64,000 bases of DNA from an uncultured virus (IMG/VR IMGVR_UViG_3300020036_002912) (IMGVR_UViG_3300020036_002912), one strand, 5' to 3'. Shown: positions 1 to 12,009, counted from the stretch's first letter. The notes: a model not told the origin generated them from the letters alone. Translations and numbers: made by a program.

Positions 1-532
1 TGAAATACACGTTCATAAAAAAATTCGTAGTAGAGTGCGAAATAGAAGTAAATGCTAACACACTAGCAGAAGCTAGGGAAATAGCCAATAAATCCGTATG
101 GTGTAATACTGAGGTTAGTAACGACCATACAATTACTTACTCAGGCGAAAATAAAGATACCTATACACAAGCCATAGAGGTAGTGAAAGCTCCCATGAGT
201 GTAGTAGATGGACAAGTAAGACTTAAAAACTATAAAGACTATAAAAATGATTAATAGAATTAACCTTGACAAGTACTATACGCCAGTACCGGTAGCTAGG
301 TACTGTATTGATACTGCTTTTAAATCTTTAAAAGATTTTGAAATAACAGACATAATAGAACCTTCAGCAGGTAACGGTAGTTTTTCGCCTGAGTAAGTAA
401 TTGTATGGTCGTTACTAACCTCAGTATTACACCATACTGATTTATTGGCTATTTCCCTAGCTTCTGCTAGTGTGTTAGCATTTACTTCTATTTCGCACTC
501 TACTACGAATTATTTTATGAACGTGTATTTCA
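1..532. repeat. Inverted repeat 1-151 vs ~382-532 (fold-back)
   Basis: 1-151 is the reverse complement of ~382-532 with 2 mismatches; the junction has TTTTCG/CGAAAA microhomology. Confidence 0.9.
248..388 (+). pseudogene. Truncated N-terminus of an adenine DNA methyltransferase-like ORF
   Basis: Translates MINRINLDKYYTP...DIIEPSAGNGSFS (YTP and EPSAGxGxF motif I) and is cut at the fold-back junction. Confidence 0.6.
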
Positions 533-9346: not shown

Positions 9347-9549
9347 GTTGTGTTTGTTTATTGGTTAAAGGTTAAAAAGAACCGGATTAGAGCACCGGTG
9401 CCTGATGTGTTTAAAACTTCACAGGTGGAACTAGAGTTAAGGGCATCTAGGACCGCTAAATAAGGACGTGGTACTTGTTACTATTAACGTACGCTAATAA
9501 CAAGGTTATTTTTACATCCGCCCACGCCTAACGGCTATTTTTAAAAAGA

Positions 9550-9614
9550 TAACCACCACCCCGAAATATAACAAGCTTAATACTAAATAAATGACCGGTA
9601 AGGGGCGGTGGTTA
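9550..9614 (-). ncRNA. Putative stem-closed small RNA
   Basis: TAACCACCACCCC / GGGGCGGTGGTTA terminal stem around an AT-rich loop. Confidence 0.4.
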
Positions 9615-9620
9615 ATGTTA

Positions 9621-9713
9621 TAATAGTCCATAGTGTTTAGCGTGGGCTTTTTTAAGGCTTCACAGTATCAGAGTTTCCTCCGCGTGATACAGAGCATGCA
9701 CTATGGTCTATTA
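9621..9713 (-). ncRNA. Putative multi-stem small RNA
   Basis: 15-bp terminal stem TAATAGTCCATAGTG / CACTATGGTCTATTA with two internal hairpins. Confidence 0.5.
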
Positions 9714-9721
9714 TTAATGGG

Positions 9722-9785
9722 TTGCGCGGTACATGGATGCTCAAAAAACTCAATTTAATAATTAAATTTATTCCCCTCCGCGCAA
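9722..9785 (-). ncRNA. Putative stem-closed small RNA
   Basis: TTGCGCGG / CCGCGCAA terminal stem, preceded by boxA-like GTTCTTTGA. Confidence 0.4.
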
Positions 9786-9806
9786 TATATTCAAAGAACT
9801 TATTTG

Positions 9807-9880
9807 TAGCAGGAGTGGGACTCGAACCCACGACCTTCGGATTATGAGTCCGACGAGCTAACCAACTGCTCCACCCTACA
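9807..9880 (-). tRNA. tRNA-Met(CAT), initiator-like
   Basis: Full cloverleaf; CTCATAA loop; 1:72 mismatch; fMet-type D arm GGAGCAGTTGGTTAGCTC; anticodon stem GGA rather than GGG; no encoded CCA. Confidence 0.9.
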
Positions 9881-9889
9881 ATATATAAA

Positions 9890-10207
9890 GCCGGTTATAC
9901 AGCCTAAATCAAACCACTGAGTCATATCATTACAACTCTTCAAACTTTACATAGGATTTGAAAGAGCTTTTTACTTTAGTACTTAATCTTTAGTGCGTAA
10001 GAACTTTTACTCTTGAACTTATAAACTTTTTGCTTTGATCTTTTAGCTTTTCAGTTTTTGAAGCTGGAATCGAACCAGCGACCTCTTGATTAACATTCAA
10101 GCGATCTAACCAACTGAGCTATTTTTCCATCGCAAGGAAATTTATGTAGTGGACTATTAACGCGACAGCCCAACGCGAATGATGTTTGTGGTTTTCGTAT
10201 AACCGGC
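9890..10207 (-). ncRNA. 318-nt structured RNA with tRNA-like module and AAAG repeats
   Basis: Perfect 11-bp end stem GCCGGTTATAC/GTATAACCGGC plus AAACCAC/GTGGTTT; no long ORF. Confidence 0.75.
10059..10128 (-). pseudogene. tRNA-Asn(GTT)-like module lacking acceptor stem
   Basis: D arm, anticodon arm CTTGA-ATGTTAA-TCAAG and T arm GCTGG-TTCGATT-CCAGC are present; 5' GGAAAAA cannot pair with 3' TTCAAAA. Confidence 0.75.
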
Positions 10208-10232
10208 AATATGTCAAAGAACAATTTGAGAA

Positions 10233-10853
10233 CTAGATCTCAATAAACGTCACGGCATTTGATTCTGATAATACAGCATCAATTTCCATTTCAAAGGTAT
10301 TAACTTCTTTGCTAAGTTCGTCAACTTTTTTATCCACACCTAATGGATCAAACAAATGGAACTCATTTGACTCCATGAACGGTTTGCGAACCGACTCCAT
10401 ATCCGAAGGAGATACCTTTGTATTGTCCTTGCCAAATGTGTGTTCTAAAATAACCTGGCAGTTCTTATTCACCTTCTCGTTGTTCTCGTTTAGGGCTGCG
10501 GTGATACGATTGTGTTTTGATTGTAATGTTTGAACAAGCGTTTTCTTGAACTTCACATTATCCTTTTCGGTGATCGCTTCTGCAACTGTCATTTCAACTT
10601 CTCCAACCTTTACTTTAGTTTTAGCGTTGCTTTCTACGATAAGGGCCTTGATCTTTTGTTTACGCTTAATTAAATCAATCGCACTGGTGTATTTAGATAG
10701 TGCGTCTGATTTAAAATCTTCCGGTTTTACATATCCGCCGATCAGCTTATCCTTTTGGTAGATAGCTGTAGGGCTAATGTCTGTGATTGCTTTTTCGATT
10801 CTGGAGTCAATAAGCTTTAATTCAGCCAATGCTCTGTGGATTGTTACTTTCAT
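10233..10853 (-). CDS. Long helical/coiled-coil protein (TIHRALAELK...IDAVLSESNAVTFIEI), possibly DIP1984/DUF6847-like
   Basis: Terminal motifs and internal MTVAEAI repeat recognised from memory; family unverified. Confidence 0.7.
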   Translation of the reverse strand: MKVTIHRALAELKLIDSRIEKAITDISPTAIYQKDKLIGGYVKPEDFKSDALSKYTSAIDLIKRKQKIKALIVESNAKTKVKVGEVEMTVAEAITEKDNVKFKKTLVQTLQSKHNRITAALNENNEKVNKNCQVILEHTFGKDNTKVSPSDMESVRKPFMESNEFHLFDPLGVDKKVDELSKEVNTFEMEIDAVLSESNAVTFIEI

Positions 10854-10895
10854 GTCTTTACTTGTTTTTAATGGTTAAACTTTAATTGTGAGTAC

Positions 10896-10940
10896 AAAGA
10901 TATAGTTTTAAACGATATGTTTTGATAAAAGTTACAAATA
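10896..10940 (-). promoter_or_regulatory. Bacteroidota-type promoter with TTGATAAAAGTTACAA box
   Basis: TATCTTTG -7 element on the minus strand; positioned to drive the coiled-coil gene and RNA cluster. Confidence 0.7.
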
Positions 10941-11559
10941 TTTTATGTTTTATTTATAACAGATTGATAGTTAGTGAGAAAAAAAAACAGCCAGAGGTGA
11001 GTCCGGCTGTCATTGTAAACTAAATTTTTAAAAGAAGTAAAAAAGTTAGACTATAAAGAACGTGATGCAAATATAGTACTAATTATTGAAAACACAAATC
11101 CCGACGCGTGGCCGGGATGTATGCTGCTTTAACCAATAAAACAAATATCTGATCTTCTATGGAAAGAAGCTTGATATGGATACAAATATACGGAATGTTC
11201 TTTTAACCACAAATAAATAGGGGTGAATAATTTTTTATACATTGATTTACATTGATTGATATACAAAGTAGGGTGGATTATAATAGAGCATAGCAATTAT
11301 TGTAAGTATCGCTGATTCGATTTAGGCAATATTAGGCAATTTGAACTAAAATCTTGTAATAACTATCTACAAAGCTCTATAAATGAAATTTAATTTTATT
11401 AATCTGTTAATCAATAAGATAATTAATTATTGAAATTATTTGCACTTTTTTGCAACTTTTATTTGTTTTGTATAGTATAATAGAGTAATTTTGTAATCAA
11501 ATAGGCGTTTACCCTTATTTTAGCAAAAGTCGGGTAAATTAATTTAACCAATAAATAAC

Positions 11560-11769
11560 ATGAAATACGTACAGAACATACCAATAGAATATCTTTTTGT
11601 AGTAGTGGTGGTATCAGTGATATTTGCCGTTATAGTAACATGTGTGAGGAATGCAGAAGAGAGAGACGAGGATGAGGTTTTGTTCAGACATCTTAATGGT
11701 ATGGATAGGGAGATAAAGAAACCTGAACTAGGGGATTCTCCATCCGCCGATCAGGAAGTGAAAAAATAA
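11560..11769 (+). CDS. Small membrane protein
   Basis: Hydrophobic YLFVVVVVSVIFAVIVTC. Confidence 0.65.
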   Translation: MKYVQNIPIEYLFVVVVVSVIFAVIVTCVRNAEERDEDEVLFRHLNGMDREIKKPELGDSPSADQEVKK

Positions 11770-11881
11770 TTGTTAAAAGATTTTGTTCTTTGAAATAAAT
11801 GTATTTACTTTGATGCATGATGCTTAGCGGCACTCACGTACAAAAGATTTTTTTTCGCGGATTTTTTTAAATCCATCTTAT

Positions 11882-11931
11882 AAATCAGCTCCCGTGATGC
11901 CGCTAATATCTAAAAGGAGCTGATTTTTTTT
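11882..11931 (+). terminator. Terminator/attenuator in leader of wHTH gene
   Basis: AAATCAGCTCC / GGAGCTGATTT followed by a T run. Confidence 0.65.
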
Positions 11932-11943
11932 CTTTCAAAACCG

Positions 11944-11994
11944 TTACACGGCTGTAAGATTTCAAGACATCTCCAAAATATTACAAATTTGTAA
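11944..11994. promoter_or_regulatory. Paired TTACA-N4-TGTAA boxes, copy 1
   Basis: Boxes at 11944 and 11981, 37 nt apart. Confidence 0.7.
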
Positions 11995-12009
11995 CGGTTT
12001 TATAACACT

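Follow-up and report, generated by a model that had tools for sequence, protein, structure and literature searches.

The DNA analysed here, a stretch of 64,000 nucleotides from an uncultured virus (IMG/VR IMGVR_UViG_3300020036_002912) that we call the window, raises the question what a 318-nt RNA is that starts 25 nt behind the stop codon of a gene for a 206-amino acid (aa) helical protein, and what it might do together with this protein. According to an open reading frame (ORF) scan the window is a phage genome with genes for a terminase, a portal protein, a major head protein, a DnaB-like helicase and DNA methyltransferases, and the 206-aa ORF is the first gene of a leftward block. The original prediction, drawn from the nucleotide sequence, described at this distance behind the gene an RNA with two closing stems, a tRNA-Asn-like module with D, anticodon and T arms but no acceptor stem, and AAAG repeats spaced by ~7 nt; it proposed a ribonucleoprotein in which the protein oligomerises on the repeats and the tRNA module acts as decoy or sensor. 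The structural part of this description is borne out. The ORF coordinates and the sequence confirm the position of the RNA, the closing stem (GCCGGUUAUACG/UGUAUAACCGGC) has 12 pairs with a closing G–U, the second stem AAACCAC/GUGGUUU is present, and the module is recognised by the Rfam tRNA model, lacks the 3′ acceptor strand and is not called by ARAGORN. We conclude that the 318-nt element is a real, conserved and heavily folded non-coding RNA and that it represents a new and ornate RNA family which is tightly linked to, and co-oriented with, the gene of a protein with a predicted DIP1984 fold.

Taken alone, the window is unconvincing. The tract of repeats contains 11 AAG starts in 102 nt, with spacings of 7, 7, 7, 8, 6, 8, 16, 6, 8 and 7 nt, and none of 5000 composition-matched shuffles reaches this number (shuffle mean 3.35); the signal of a 7-nt period is modest in the window alone, as 327 of the 5000 shuffles reach it, and Tandem Repeats Finder gives the repeats a score of only 31. 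An 11-bp inverted repeat at the ends of the RNA ranks only 15th of 40 such pairs in the window, and the fold z-score of the 318-nt RNA is −3.15. One could read these data as a decayed tRNA-Asn gene, an A-rich spacer and a chance inverted repeat, given the low rank of the repeat, the real tRNA-Met gene next to it and the pseudogene-like tRNA match without acceptor stem. To this reading we give practically no weight; it is refuted by the 318-nt architecture, which is conserved and covaries in more than 100 loci of distant phages and bacteria. It is this conservation and covariation in the relatives that sets the feature far apart from a chance finding.

Conservation and covariation of the RNA

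Homologous loci were gathered via the protein (80 from IMG/VR, 80 from metagenomes, 35 from bacterial genomes or metagenome-assembled genomes and four annotated phages), and the closing stem, P1, was searched for as a perfect helix of 8 or more pairs with a GGC immediately before its 3′ arm. Such a P1 is present at the conserved anchors in 120 of 165 entries. A profile of the 3′ domain built from these P1-positive RNAs places the RNA directly behind the gene and on the same strand in 37 of the 44 remaining loci; six of the seven misses have 183 nt or less after the stop codon, and the seventh is taken up below. In the set of bacterial genomes the RNA lies behind the gene in 33 of 35 loci, and one of the misses is a cut locus. 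All 283 profile hits are on the strand of the gene and at most 700 nt downstream of it. The rest of the loci, which comprise 681 kb, has no further hit, and neither has the 64-kb window, in which the nhmmer profiles of the 3′ domain and of the 5′ domain have their sole matches at 9891–10059 (E 6.9e-31) and at 10113–10210 (E 2.5e-07), respectively. Collecting homologues of the protein thus yielded, as the original prediction implied, a covarying RNA behind the gene in nearly all loci with enough sequence. The gap between gene and RNA is 2–60 nt, order and strand are constant across very distant phages and bacteria, and the non-redundant RNAs are 217–589 nt long (median 335).

The linkage was also approached from the side of the RNA. 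A pattern search of IMG/VR yielded 14 matches, of which 13 are real; the other one (L216) is a chance match within a coding region and has no profile hit. The full gene lies upstream in 10 of the 13, one further contig (L223) retains the last 23 residues of the gene at its edge, one (L219) gives no information on the gene, and one (L217) lacks the gene and is discussed below. The linkage between gene and RNA is near-universal and not absolute. The lineages concerned are Bacteroidota-like metagenomic phages, T5-like enterobacterial phages, Bastille-like Bacillus phages as well as Clostridium, Vibrio and Pseudomonas phages, and the module is also present in a lemur-gut phage.

In phage T5 the homologue of the 206-aa protein is T5.085 (gp120 in DT57C), and the RNA lies between the stop codon of T5.085 and the promoter of T5.084. 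It has a P1 of 21 pairs including five G–U pairs, the CGAAA motif, the heptads and the terminal ..AGGCUG. The corresponding 370-nt stretch matches 440 T5-like records, all but 5 of them at 90% identity or more, and in 60 records among the matches listed it has no RNA annotation, the entry being mostly "none" and otherwise "promoter" or "hypothetical protein". As the RNA sits unannotated in T5 and in these 440 records, a common laboratory phage is available for immediate experiments on it. A separate observation concerns Escherichia phage DT57C, in which a "rnaX, stable RNA with unknown functions" is annotated ~2 kb downstream of the module (L084:5069–5624); this rnaX contains a 39-bit Rfam tRNA match.

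The secondary structure was evaluated on an alignment (A2) of 55 sequences in which 62 pairs were counted, including the helices of the permuted tRNA mimic described below. Standard pairs make up 90.3% of the pair cells compared with 67.8% after shuffling, a value that none of 500 shuffles reaches, and only 36–44% when the partners are slid by 1–3 columns. Both sides change in 53 of the 62 pairs, and the covariation score is 0.450 compared with 0.137 for shuffled and ~0.07 for slid partners. The arms of P1 diverge widely in sequence between loci with the pairing kept, and both sides change in 10 of its 12 pairs; that P1 is 100% paired is by construction, because the RNAs had been selected for P1 pairing. 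P2 is paired in 95.8% of the cells, with both sides changing in 4 of 7 pairs, and P4 in 93.5%, with both sides changing in all 4 pairs. P3 is 98.6% paired and each of its two variable pairs shows all four Watson–Crick types (CG 18, UA 17, GC 13, AU 7 and UA 21, AU 17, GC 11, CG 2, respectively). P2 encloses the 5′ strand of P3 but not the 3′ strand, so that the two helices cross in a pseudoknot. A second, H-type pseudoknot is located in the 5′ part, where S1 is 88% and the core of S2 82% paired; the window's own S2 is misaligned in A2. In the relatives both S1 (CCC/GGG) and S2 (e.g. UGCUU/AAGCA, GAUCCUU/AAGGAUC, CAUAGUU/AACUAUG) covary. The helix P6 is 65% paired in an alignment that is poor in this region, and in the window it appears to abut the D arm at the place where the acceptor stem of a tRNA would lie.

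The distance from the AAAYCC motif to the 3′ end is constant (median 72 nt, 10th–90th percentile 68–75, n = 101), and 43 of 106 non-redundant relatives have a U-rich tail behind P1. The strand of the RNA is indicated by D and T arms of tRNA type that are readable on the minus strand only, by the orientation shared with the gene and with nearly all tRNA genes nearby, and by the U tail or terminator behind P1.

The heptad tract and the tRNA-like insert

The tract of AAAG repeats behaves differently from the helices. Its A columns are invariant with almost no insertions or deletions across the 55 sequences, the consensus reads UGAAAAGUUUAAAGnUnAAAGUUnAAAGnnnAAAGGUUAAAnUUnAAAGUUCUU....AUUAAAGAUUAAAA...AAAGnGUAAAGUUCUUUUAAAUCC, and of 115 RNAs of the family 84% show a stronger period of 7 than of 6 or 8. 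When all pairs of columns were screened, no covarying partner of the tract was found. Since the sequence and not the pairing is conserved, it behaves as an unpaired array of evenly spaced recognition sites or as a set of tertiary contacts, and this conservation fits a single-stranded platform with multiple sites. Pairing of AAAG with two conserved CUUU segments, either within one molecule or between the palindromes AAAGNNCUUU of a dimer, was considered and rejected, because C changes to A in CUUU and the invariant G remains unchanged.

The tRNA-like insert of the window scores 45.2 bits with the Rfam tRNA model (RF00005; cut-off 29) and has the D, anticodon and T arms in cloverleaf order. A 7-bp acceptor stem is not formed; the alignment to the model has four non-pairs at this place and a deletion of 4 nt on the 3′ side. 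When 120 RNAs were classified by motifs (regular expressions), the T arm preceded the D arm in 33, which is the permuted order, and the D arm preceded the T arm in 7, some of which are artefacts of the expressions; only the T arm motif was found in 39, only the D arm motif in 5 and neither motif in 36, T5 included. The common form, read in detail in L007 and L012, corresponds exactly to a circularly permuted tRNA whose anticodon loop has been opened. It starts with the 3′ strand of the anticodon stem, the variable loop, the T arm, a 7-nt 3′ strand of the acceptor and a closing loop, and continues with the 5′ strand of the acceptor, U8 and A9, the D arm and the 5′ strand of the anticodon stem. 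The natural tRNA order without acceptor stem is present in the window, L121, L134 and L141, and these four are not uniform in the anticodon loop, which is GUU in both the window and L134, has 9 nt in L121 and is UUA in L141. One group of near-identical loci contains a whole tRNA inside the RNA, which accounts for 25 of the 26 ARAGORN calls inside the RNAs, and the T5-like and many other RNAs have no recognisable insert. The insert is therefore exchangeable and may be permuted, in tRNA order, a whole tRNA or nothing at all. Apart from these inserts, tandem circularly permuted tRNA-like modules occur in L217, ~420 nt upstream of the 3′ domain of its RNA.

These inserts bear on the suggestion that the module is a tRNA-Asn-like decoy or sensor for an anticodon nuclease of the host. 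Phage tRNA clusters counter tRNA-cleaving defences, the window and L134 have a well-formed GUU anticodon arm in a frame of D and T arms, and a gene for the RNA ligase RtcB lies within 2.5 kb in two loci, being found once in the annotation of L001 and once (L014) among the flanking ORFs described below. On the other side, at least 33 of the 120 RNAs are permuted and have no anticodon loop, about 36 show neither arm motif, and the few inserts in tRNA order do not agree in the loop. Because the insert is exchangeable a decoy for tRNA-Asn is unlikely, and because the recurring element is the elbow of the tRNA and not the anticodon the idea fails for the family; we regard it as highly improbable. 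Thus, of the functional part of the original prediction, the conserved unit of gene and RNA stands, with the same order and strand in distant phages and bacteria, whereas the tRNA-Asn decoy or sensor does not, the anticodon arm not being conserved.

The features of the locus are compiled in the table below, in which position p of the RNA corresponds to position 10208 − p of the window.

Table. Features of the gene, the RNA and the adjacent tRNA gene in the window
Feature	Window position	Strand	Remarks
206-aa helical protein gene	10233..10853	-	ORF; phrog_1491; T5.085 family; DIP1984-like fold (predicted)
Whole structured RNA, 318 nt	9890..10207	-	runs from 10207 to 9890; homologous to the RNAs behind the gene in other loci
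P1 5′ arm, GCCGGUUAUACG, RNA 1–12	10196..10207	-	pairs with 9890–9901; followed by conserved AAAA
P1 3′ arm, UGUAUAACCGGC, RNA 307–318	9890..9901	-	directly past the invariant GGC; covarying
P2 5′ strand, AAACCAC, RNA 14–20	10188..10194	-	pairs with RNA 291–297
P2 3′ strand, GUGGUUU, RNA 291–297	9911..9917	-	between both strands of P3
5′ H-type pseudoknot, S1 RNA 31–34/44–47, S2 RNA 37–41/53–57	10151..10177	-	pairs of the window read from the sequence
P6 hairpin, UUCC-UUGCGAU-GGAA, RNA 69–83	10125..10139	-	loop consensus of the family AUGCUAA
tRNA-like insert without acceptor stem	10059..10128	-	Rfam tRNA model 45.2 bits
Arms of the insert: D RNA 89–105; anticodon-like RNA 107–123, loop AUGUUAA; T RNA 129–145	within 10059..10128	-	
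Heptad tract, ~11 AAAG/AAG units, ending in AAAGCUCUUUCAAAUCC	9954..10054	-	counts, spacing, shuffles
P3 5′ strand, CCUA, RNA 253–256	9952..9955	-	pairs with UAGG, RNA 302–305
P3 3′ strand, UAGG, RNA 302–305	9903..9906	-	in the invariant ..GGCUG; covarying
P4 hairpin, GAGU...ACUC, RNA 270–289	9919..9938	-	covarying
tRNA-Met(CAU), ordinary gene, 10 nt downstream of and outside the RNA	9806..9880	-	ARAGORN; Rfam 61.2 bits

Some further stretches of the window are worth mentioning. Between tRNA-Met and the next gene lies an ORF-free stretch of 460 nt (9347–9805, minus strand) with a 13-bp stem (AACCACCGCCCC.../...GGGGUGGUGGUU), a fold z-score of −2.83 and only a sub-threshold Rfam match. Upstream of the 206-aa gene, an ORF-poor region of 1.15 kb (10854–12009) contains two terminator-like hairpins on the minus strand (11011–10986 and 11118–11098), a 26-nt imperfect palindrome (11937–12001) and a weak GcvB-like match (22.7 bits, cut-off 42); it possibly is a divergent control region or harbors further small RNAs. 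Neither stretch has similarity in any of the fetched loci. At the very start of the window (1–532) an inverted repeat of 151 nt is found whose arms are 99% complementary and 230 nt apart.

The protein and the possible function of the pair

The 206-aa protein matches phrog_1491 over its full length (E 6.2e-55). Homologues are present in 744 phage records, all of them below 60% identity, and at E ≤ 1e-3 the protein retrieves 3,098 clusters of 50% identity, which makes the RNA a widespread one; among the best 150 of these 3,098 clusters nearly all have a length of ~200–240 aa. A scan of viral contigs with the single protein gave no close relatives, and the region is missing from the record nearest to the window (G001). 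An AlphaFold2 model based on an alignment of 43 sequences (predicted local distance difference test 89.5, predicted template modelling score 0.63) consists of long helical hairpins and a small β-hairpin. No PDB entry matches the protein by sequence at E ≤ 1. In the structural comparison by Foldseek the best match is 3kdq, a "functionally unknown conserved protein" of Corynebacterium diphtheriae (E 0.022, probability 0.97), and a wide structural search (VIA-align) found the same chain, 3kdq_A, with a Z of 11.7, a root mean square deviation of 6.9 and 151 of 152 residues aligned, the next best match having a Z of 7.7. The sequence scores point in the same direction and remain below the cut-offs, with 17.2 bits for DUF6847 (PF20935; cut-off 27) and 19.5 bits for DIP1984_fam (NF038048; cut-off 70), and the rows of the ESM Atlas are weak sequence matches, again towards DIP1984. 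By its modelled structure the protein thus is a distant relative of the DIP1984 fold, and it is not a member by sequence.

The label "tail fiber protein" is attached to phrog_1491 and is common in RefSeq for its homologues, e.g. T5.085, gp120 of DT57C and orf239 of Bc431v3. We reject this assignment in view of the DIP1984-like fold and of the position of the gene in early and tRNA regions; it looks like a propagated label that nothing in our analysis supports, and phage annotation should drop the name for the phrog_1491/T5.085 protein.

The genomic surroundings of the module are varied. At least one tRNA gene is found in 59 of 76 loci of 5 kb or more, with 378 of the 380 tRNAs on the strand of the module, and in Bacillus phage Bc431v3 the gene directly follows an array of 21 tRNAs. 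These neighbours are dispensable, as a tRNA gene adjoins the module in just 3 of the 35 bacterial loci. The genes around the module are diverse (76 flanking ORFs in 29 related loci); in phages they encode DNA methyltransferases, HNH proteins, an integrase, PhoH/PIN proteins and endolysins. Two of the loci contain other known RNAs: a permuted transfer-messenger RNA (tmRNA; RF04321, 59.6 bits, L022:1977–2357) and five tRNA genes just upstream of the module, and a "drum" RNA (RF02958, 47.7 bits, L026:3898–4005) ~770 nt downstream of the protein gene and beyond the module RNA.

In Sporosarcina the module is situated among ordinary chromosomal genes and at differing places; the neighbours are a LytS-type kinase and a maltose acetyltransferase in one case, methyltransferases and DUF4179 in another, and a GNAT protein and a DNA-alkylation repair gene in a third. 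One bacterial locus read in sequence (L194) consists of the gene, the RNA and a rho-independent terminator. The protein is present in 27 of the 81 genomes searched in this genus, so that the module is a patchy accessory in bacteria.

Such a distribution would suit a toxin–antitoxin or abortive-infection-like pair with type III logic, in which the free protein is harmful, the multi-site RNA sequesters it and loss of the RNA sets it free. A protein gene is combined with a repeat RNA, the module is patchy, occupies differing chromosomal contexts and is carried by mobile elements with DNA methyltransferase, HNH and PhoH/PIN genes nearby in the phages, and ~11 sites per RNA might be suited to titrate a protein of which each transcript yields many copies. 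However, the models of defence systems in PADLOC do not match the protein, the RNA is downstream with units of only 7 nt, and the predicted DIP1984 fold is all-helical. The RNA, with two pseudoknots and a clamping stem, is also built for stability and not for lability, and phages with a strictly lytic life cycle, T5 among them, have retained the module. We therefore consider such a pair improbable.

A further clue comes from the DUF6847 genes proper, which are found in 23 of 41 genomes of the same bacterial genus (19 above the family cut-off), often at a distance of 3–8 kb from the homologue of the 206-aa gene (L201–L212). All 12 fetched DUF6847 loci (L201–L212) have a conserved structured RNA of their own, ~210 nt long, directly downstream of the gene, and in most of them a terminator-like hairpin with a U run can be read behind the RNA. 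RNAalifold predicts 34 pairs, 9 of which show compensatory changes within the single genus, and the closing stems covary. A variable insert with a T-arm-like hairpin (CGGUUC/GA..CCG) is present in 5 of the 12, and none of the 9 loci searched matches an Rfam family. That two branches of one fold each have their own 3′ RNA is in our view the strongest indirect argument for a joint function of protein and RNA.

Gene and RNA are probably transcribed together, with the RNA as the 3′ continuation of the 206-aa gene, because the interval between them is free of terminators and the RNA is followed by a U tail or terminator. This arrangement would also be expected of a cis-acting 3′ untranslated element without function in trans, for example, a stabiliser against exonucleases, a terminator or an autoregulatory operator: the RNA begins 2–60 nt after the stop codon with no intervening terminator, and behind P1 comes the U tail mentioned above (43 of 106 cases) or a canonical terminator. 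But an RNA of 217–589 nt with two pseudoknots, heptads of fixed length and tRNA mimics exceeds the needs of a stabiliser or terminator, it is conserved at least as well as the protein, and the phage L217 keeps the 3′ domain of the RNA without the gene. A purely cis-acting role is in our opinion quite improbable.

We suggest that protein and RNA form a putative ribonucleoprotein in which the heptad array serves as a multivalent platform for the protein and the tRNA mimic as an accessory module for docking or maturation; we give this proposal about an even chance of being correct. P1 clamps the ends of the RNA, the P2/P3 pseudoknot together with P4 makes up a core of constant size beside P1, the H-type pseudoknot and P6 make up the 5′ domain, and the insert is placed between this domain and the heptad tract. 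In the proposed particle the knotted core would hold the heptad platform in a defined geometry, and several copies of the protein might sit on the unpaired heptads; one messenger RNA would supply many proteins and one RNA ~11 equal sites. The tRNA elbow (D loop/T loop) might be shown to a host factor that handles tRNAs, or might confer processing, modification or stability of tRNA type, the insert being optional and having no role as anticodon decoy. Since the module is found in tRNA operons and accessory regions of phages and is patchy in bacteria, the setting points to tRNA or translation biology or to the conflict between phage and host.

Several results weigh against this proposal. The PDB and structure searches revealed no known RNA-binding domain in the protein, and 3KDQ, its sole structural relative, has no known function. 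The DUF6847-linked RNA has no heptad tract, so that the fold does not in general use heptads for docking. The strand test by pair types is weak outside P1, because G–U cells barely exceed A–C cells there (113 and 86, respectively), and the number of loci overstates the number of independent events, because many loci are near-duplicates (e.g. L057–L082). RNA-library contigs from four sequencing runs (7–10% of the sampled words) covered tRNA-Met and the tRNA-like arms and then ran into unrelated sequence; they matched only tRNA-like pieces from other organisms and are silent on expression. One locus (L039) has the gene and 2.5 kb of downstream sequence in which the profile search detects no RNA. 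Finally, L217 (G085) has the 3′ domain of the RNA (E 4.6e-40) and no gene beside it. The record is a 64.6-kb phage genome with direct terminal repeats that is rated 100% complete, and it contains no homologue of the protein even at E ≤ 1, whereas two control phages matched at 3e-86 and 6e-79. This speaks against an obligate pair, and the RNA can thus exist without a protein encoded in cis.

The complete phage L217 would fit an RNA-only machine like GOLLD or ROOL, which possibly self-assembles via the unpaired A-rich tract and for which the protein is a co-transcribed helper (chaperone or stabiliser) or an independent cargo. In keeping with this, GOLLD and ROOL are found near tRNA islands, have no known protein partner and form cages (passages of PMC12286853), and in the present family the variable linker holds tRNA-like elements or a whole tRNA and most of the longer loci have tRNA genes. 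Against it, nearly all loci of the distant phages and of the bacteria have gene and RNA side by side, in the same orientation and at a short distance, the DUF6847 paralogues carry a 3′ RNA of their own, which is hard to explain without a relationship between protein and RNA, and the Rfam models of GOLLD and ROOL do not match. We consider an RNA-only machine rather unlikely.

Extending the proposed ribonucleoprotein, DIP1984-fold proteins and their 3′ RNAs could be a large superfamily of ribonucleoproteins that has so far gone unrecognised in phages, in plasmids and in bacteria. In its phrog_1491/T5.085 branch about eleven copies of the protein would sit on the AAAG array of a doubly knotted RNA, and the exchangeable, often permuted tRNA mimic would dock the particle to the tRNA or translation machinery. 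We put this forward tentatively, as a possibility that is more doubtful than the pairing of protein and RNA itself. If true, it would be a new kind of particle for phage take-over or counter-defence that can be studied in T5. Few large and intricate RNAs of bacteria and phages are known (OLE, GOLLD, ROOL, raiA, HEARO), and each of them opened a line of research. The present family adds natural, circularly permuted tRNA mimics, with three or more designs that can replace each other, which bears on the use of the tRNA shape as a module outside translation, and its strictly spaced AAAG array is a candidate for a new code of protein–RNA recognition. It would also give the first functional lead for the DIP1984/DUF6847 fold, whose structure (PDB 3KDQ) was solved in 2009 without a function.

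Known RNAs and systems compared

The literature searched contains no description of this RNA, of T5.085 or of phrog_1491; the supplements of PMC5737381 and PMC10690425 may list fragments, and passages from the main text of the latter, a catalogue paper, do not mention the RNA. With respect to Rfam, the expectation that the RNA lies outside the known families holds for the window, in whose RNA only the tRNA-like insert is recognised by Rfam, and does not hold for all of its relatives, since L001 matches the 86-nt model RAGATH-27 (RF03100). The match covers the first 84 nt of the RNA of this phage, Dulem virus 39 (L001:3641–3724, 77.2 bits, cut-off 76.1), and the RAGATH-27 consensus contains the ..CCGAAAACUuuAAAC.. 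motif of the family. In contrast to the full RNA, the model has 86 positions, consists mostly of sequence with one hairpin and represents the 5′ end of one subgroup; it gives no match in the window even at E ≤ 10 and misses 39 further related loci at the gathering score. As L001 matches and the window does not, RAGATH-27 is a fragment model of a sister subgroup. It was reportedly defined by Weinberg in 2017.

A resemblance to the Y RNA YrlA lies in the terminal stem that joins both ends and in the permuted tRNA mimic, which at least 33 of the 120 RNAs have; about 36 of the 120 show neither arm motif. According to passages of PMC4201824 the mimic of YrlA has the order T arm, acceptor-like stem–loop and D arm; comparison of Yrn1 with YrlA shows that a second orientation exists, and the insert of the window likewise has the second orientation. 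Passages of PMC4201824 also give a YrlA motif GNCGAAN0-1G, to which the family motif N-C-G-A-A-A-A does not correspond, as there is no conserved G two bases upstream. Y RNAs further differ in their partner, which is Ro60/Rsr there and a 206-aa protein with a predicted DIP1984 fold here, and in that the tRNA mimic is dispensable in the present RNA, whose core of two pseudoknots and heptads has no counterpart in Y RNAs. No Ro60/TROVE match was obtained with PHROGs for 59 larger ORFs of the window, with PHROGs and Pfam for 5 ORFs, or among the 76 flanking ORFs of 29 related loci, and no Rfam family of Y RNA type was found at the gathering score or at E ≤ 10.

Short protein-binding repeats in periodic arrangement are also found in the trp leader bound by TRAP, in the RNA targets of HutP and in the CsrB/RsmZ RNAs. 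With its repeated purine motif of 3–4 nt, regularly spaced, unpaired and beside the gene of a candidate binder, the heptad tract would be comparable; it differs in that the protein is unrelated to TRAP, HutP or CsrA and AAAG occurs at a 7-nt spacing embedded in a knotted RNA.

A permuted ssrA gene encodes the T arm, the acceptor 3′ strand, an intervening loop, the acceptor 5′ strand, an A-rich tract and pseudoknots, in this order, and the permuted insert, the A-rich unpaired tract and the pseudoknots of the present family might be seen as recalling such a two-piece tmRNA. No Rfam tmRNA model matches the family RNAs, the tRNA and tmRNA options of ARAGORN are silent inside most of them, and the acceptor-like stem of L012, different from a tmRNA, is closed by a loop and has no G3–U70. 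A tmRNA-like tag frame was rejected, as the window has a frame of 20 codons, L008 has a stop after 5 codons and no frame is conserved through the heptads. The P1/P2/P3 arrangement and the AAAUCC/GGCUG motifs recall the P1/P2/P4 topology of RNase P; an RNase P-like core was likewise rejected, because no RNase P model matches even at E ≤ 10 and because the large domains are placed on the opposite side of the pseudoknot.

In type III toxin–antitoxin systems the RNA gene lies upstream of an endoribonuclease toxin and has repeat units of ~34–36 nt. The present module shares with ToxIN the combination of a protein gene and an adjacent repetitive pseudoknot RNA, its presence on mobile elements and its patchiness in bacteria. 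It is distinguished by the reversed order, the 7-nt units, the lack of a ToxN-like nuclease fold and the lack of a PADLOC match.

The only clear structural relatives are DIP1984/DUF6847 proteins, which in one bacterial genus have their own structured RNA downstream. They are shorter (~150–190 aa compared with 206 aa), and their RNA is unlike the present one in sequence and has no heptads.

Finally, GOLLD and ROOL are RNAs of phages and prophages near tRNA islands that have multiple pseudoknots, a variable region which can hold tRNAs, and an unknown function, as stated in passages of PMC12286853 and PMC5737381. According to passages of PMC12286853 they have no known protein partner and form homo-oligomeric cages, and tRNAs are sometimes present in the linker of GOLLD. 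The Rfam models of both RNAs have no match in the window or in 40 further loci, and the likeness, a phage location near tRNA genes and a variable linker bearing a tRNA, is one of context and not of membership. The present RNA is two to three times smaller and is unrelated in sequence and fold. In contrast to both of them it is tied to a single, dedicated protein gene, which provides a handle for pull-downs and structures.

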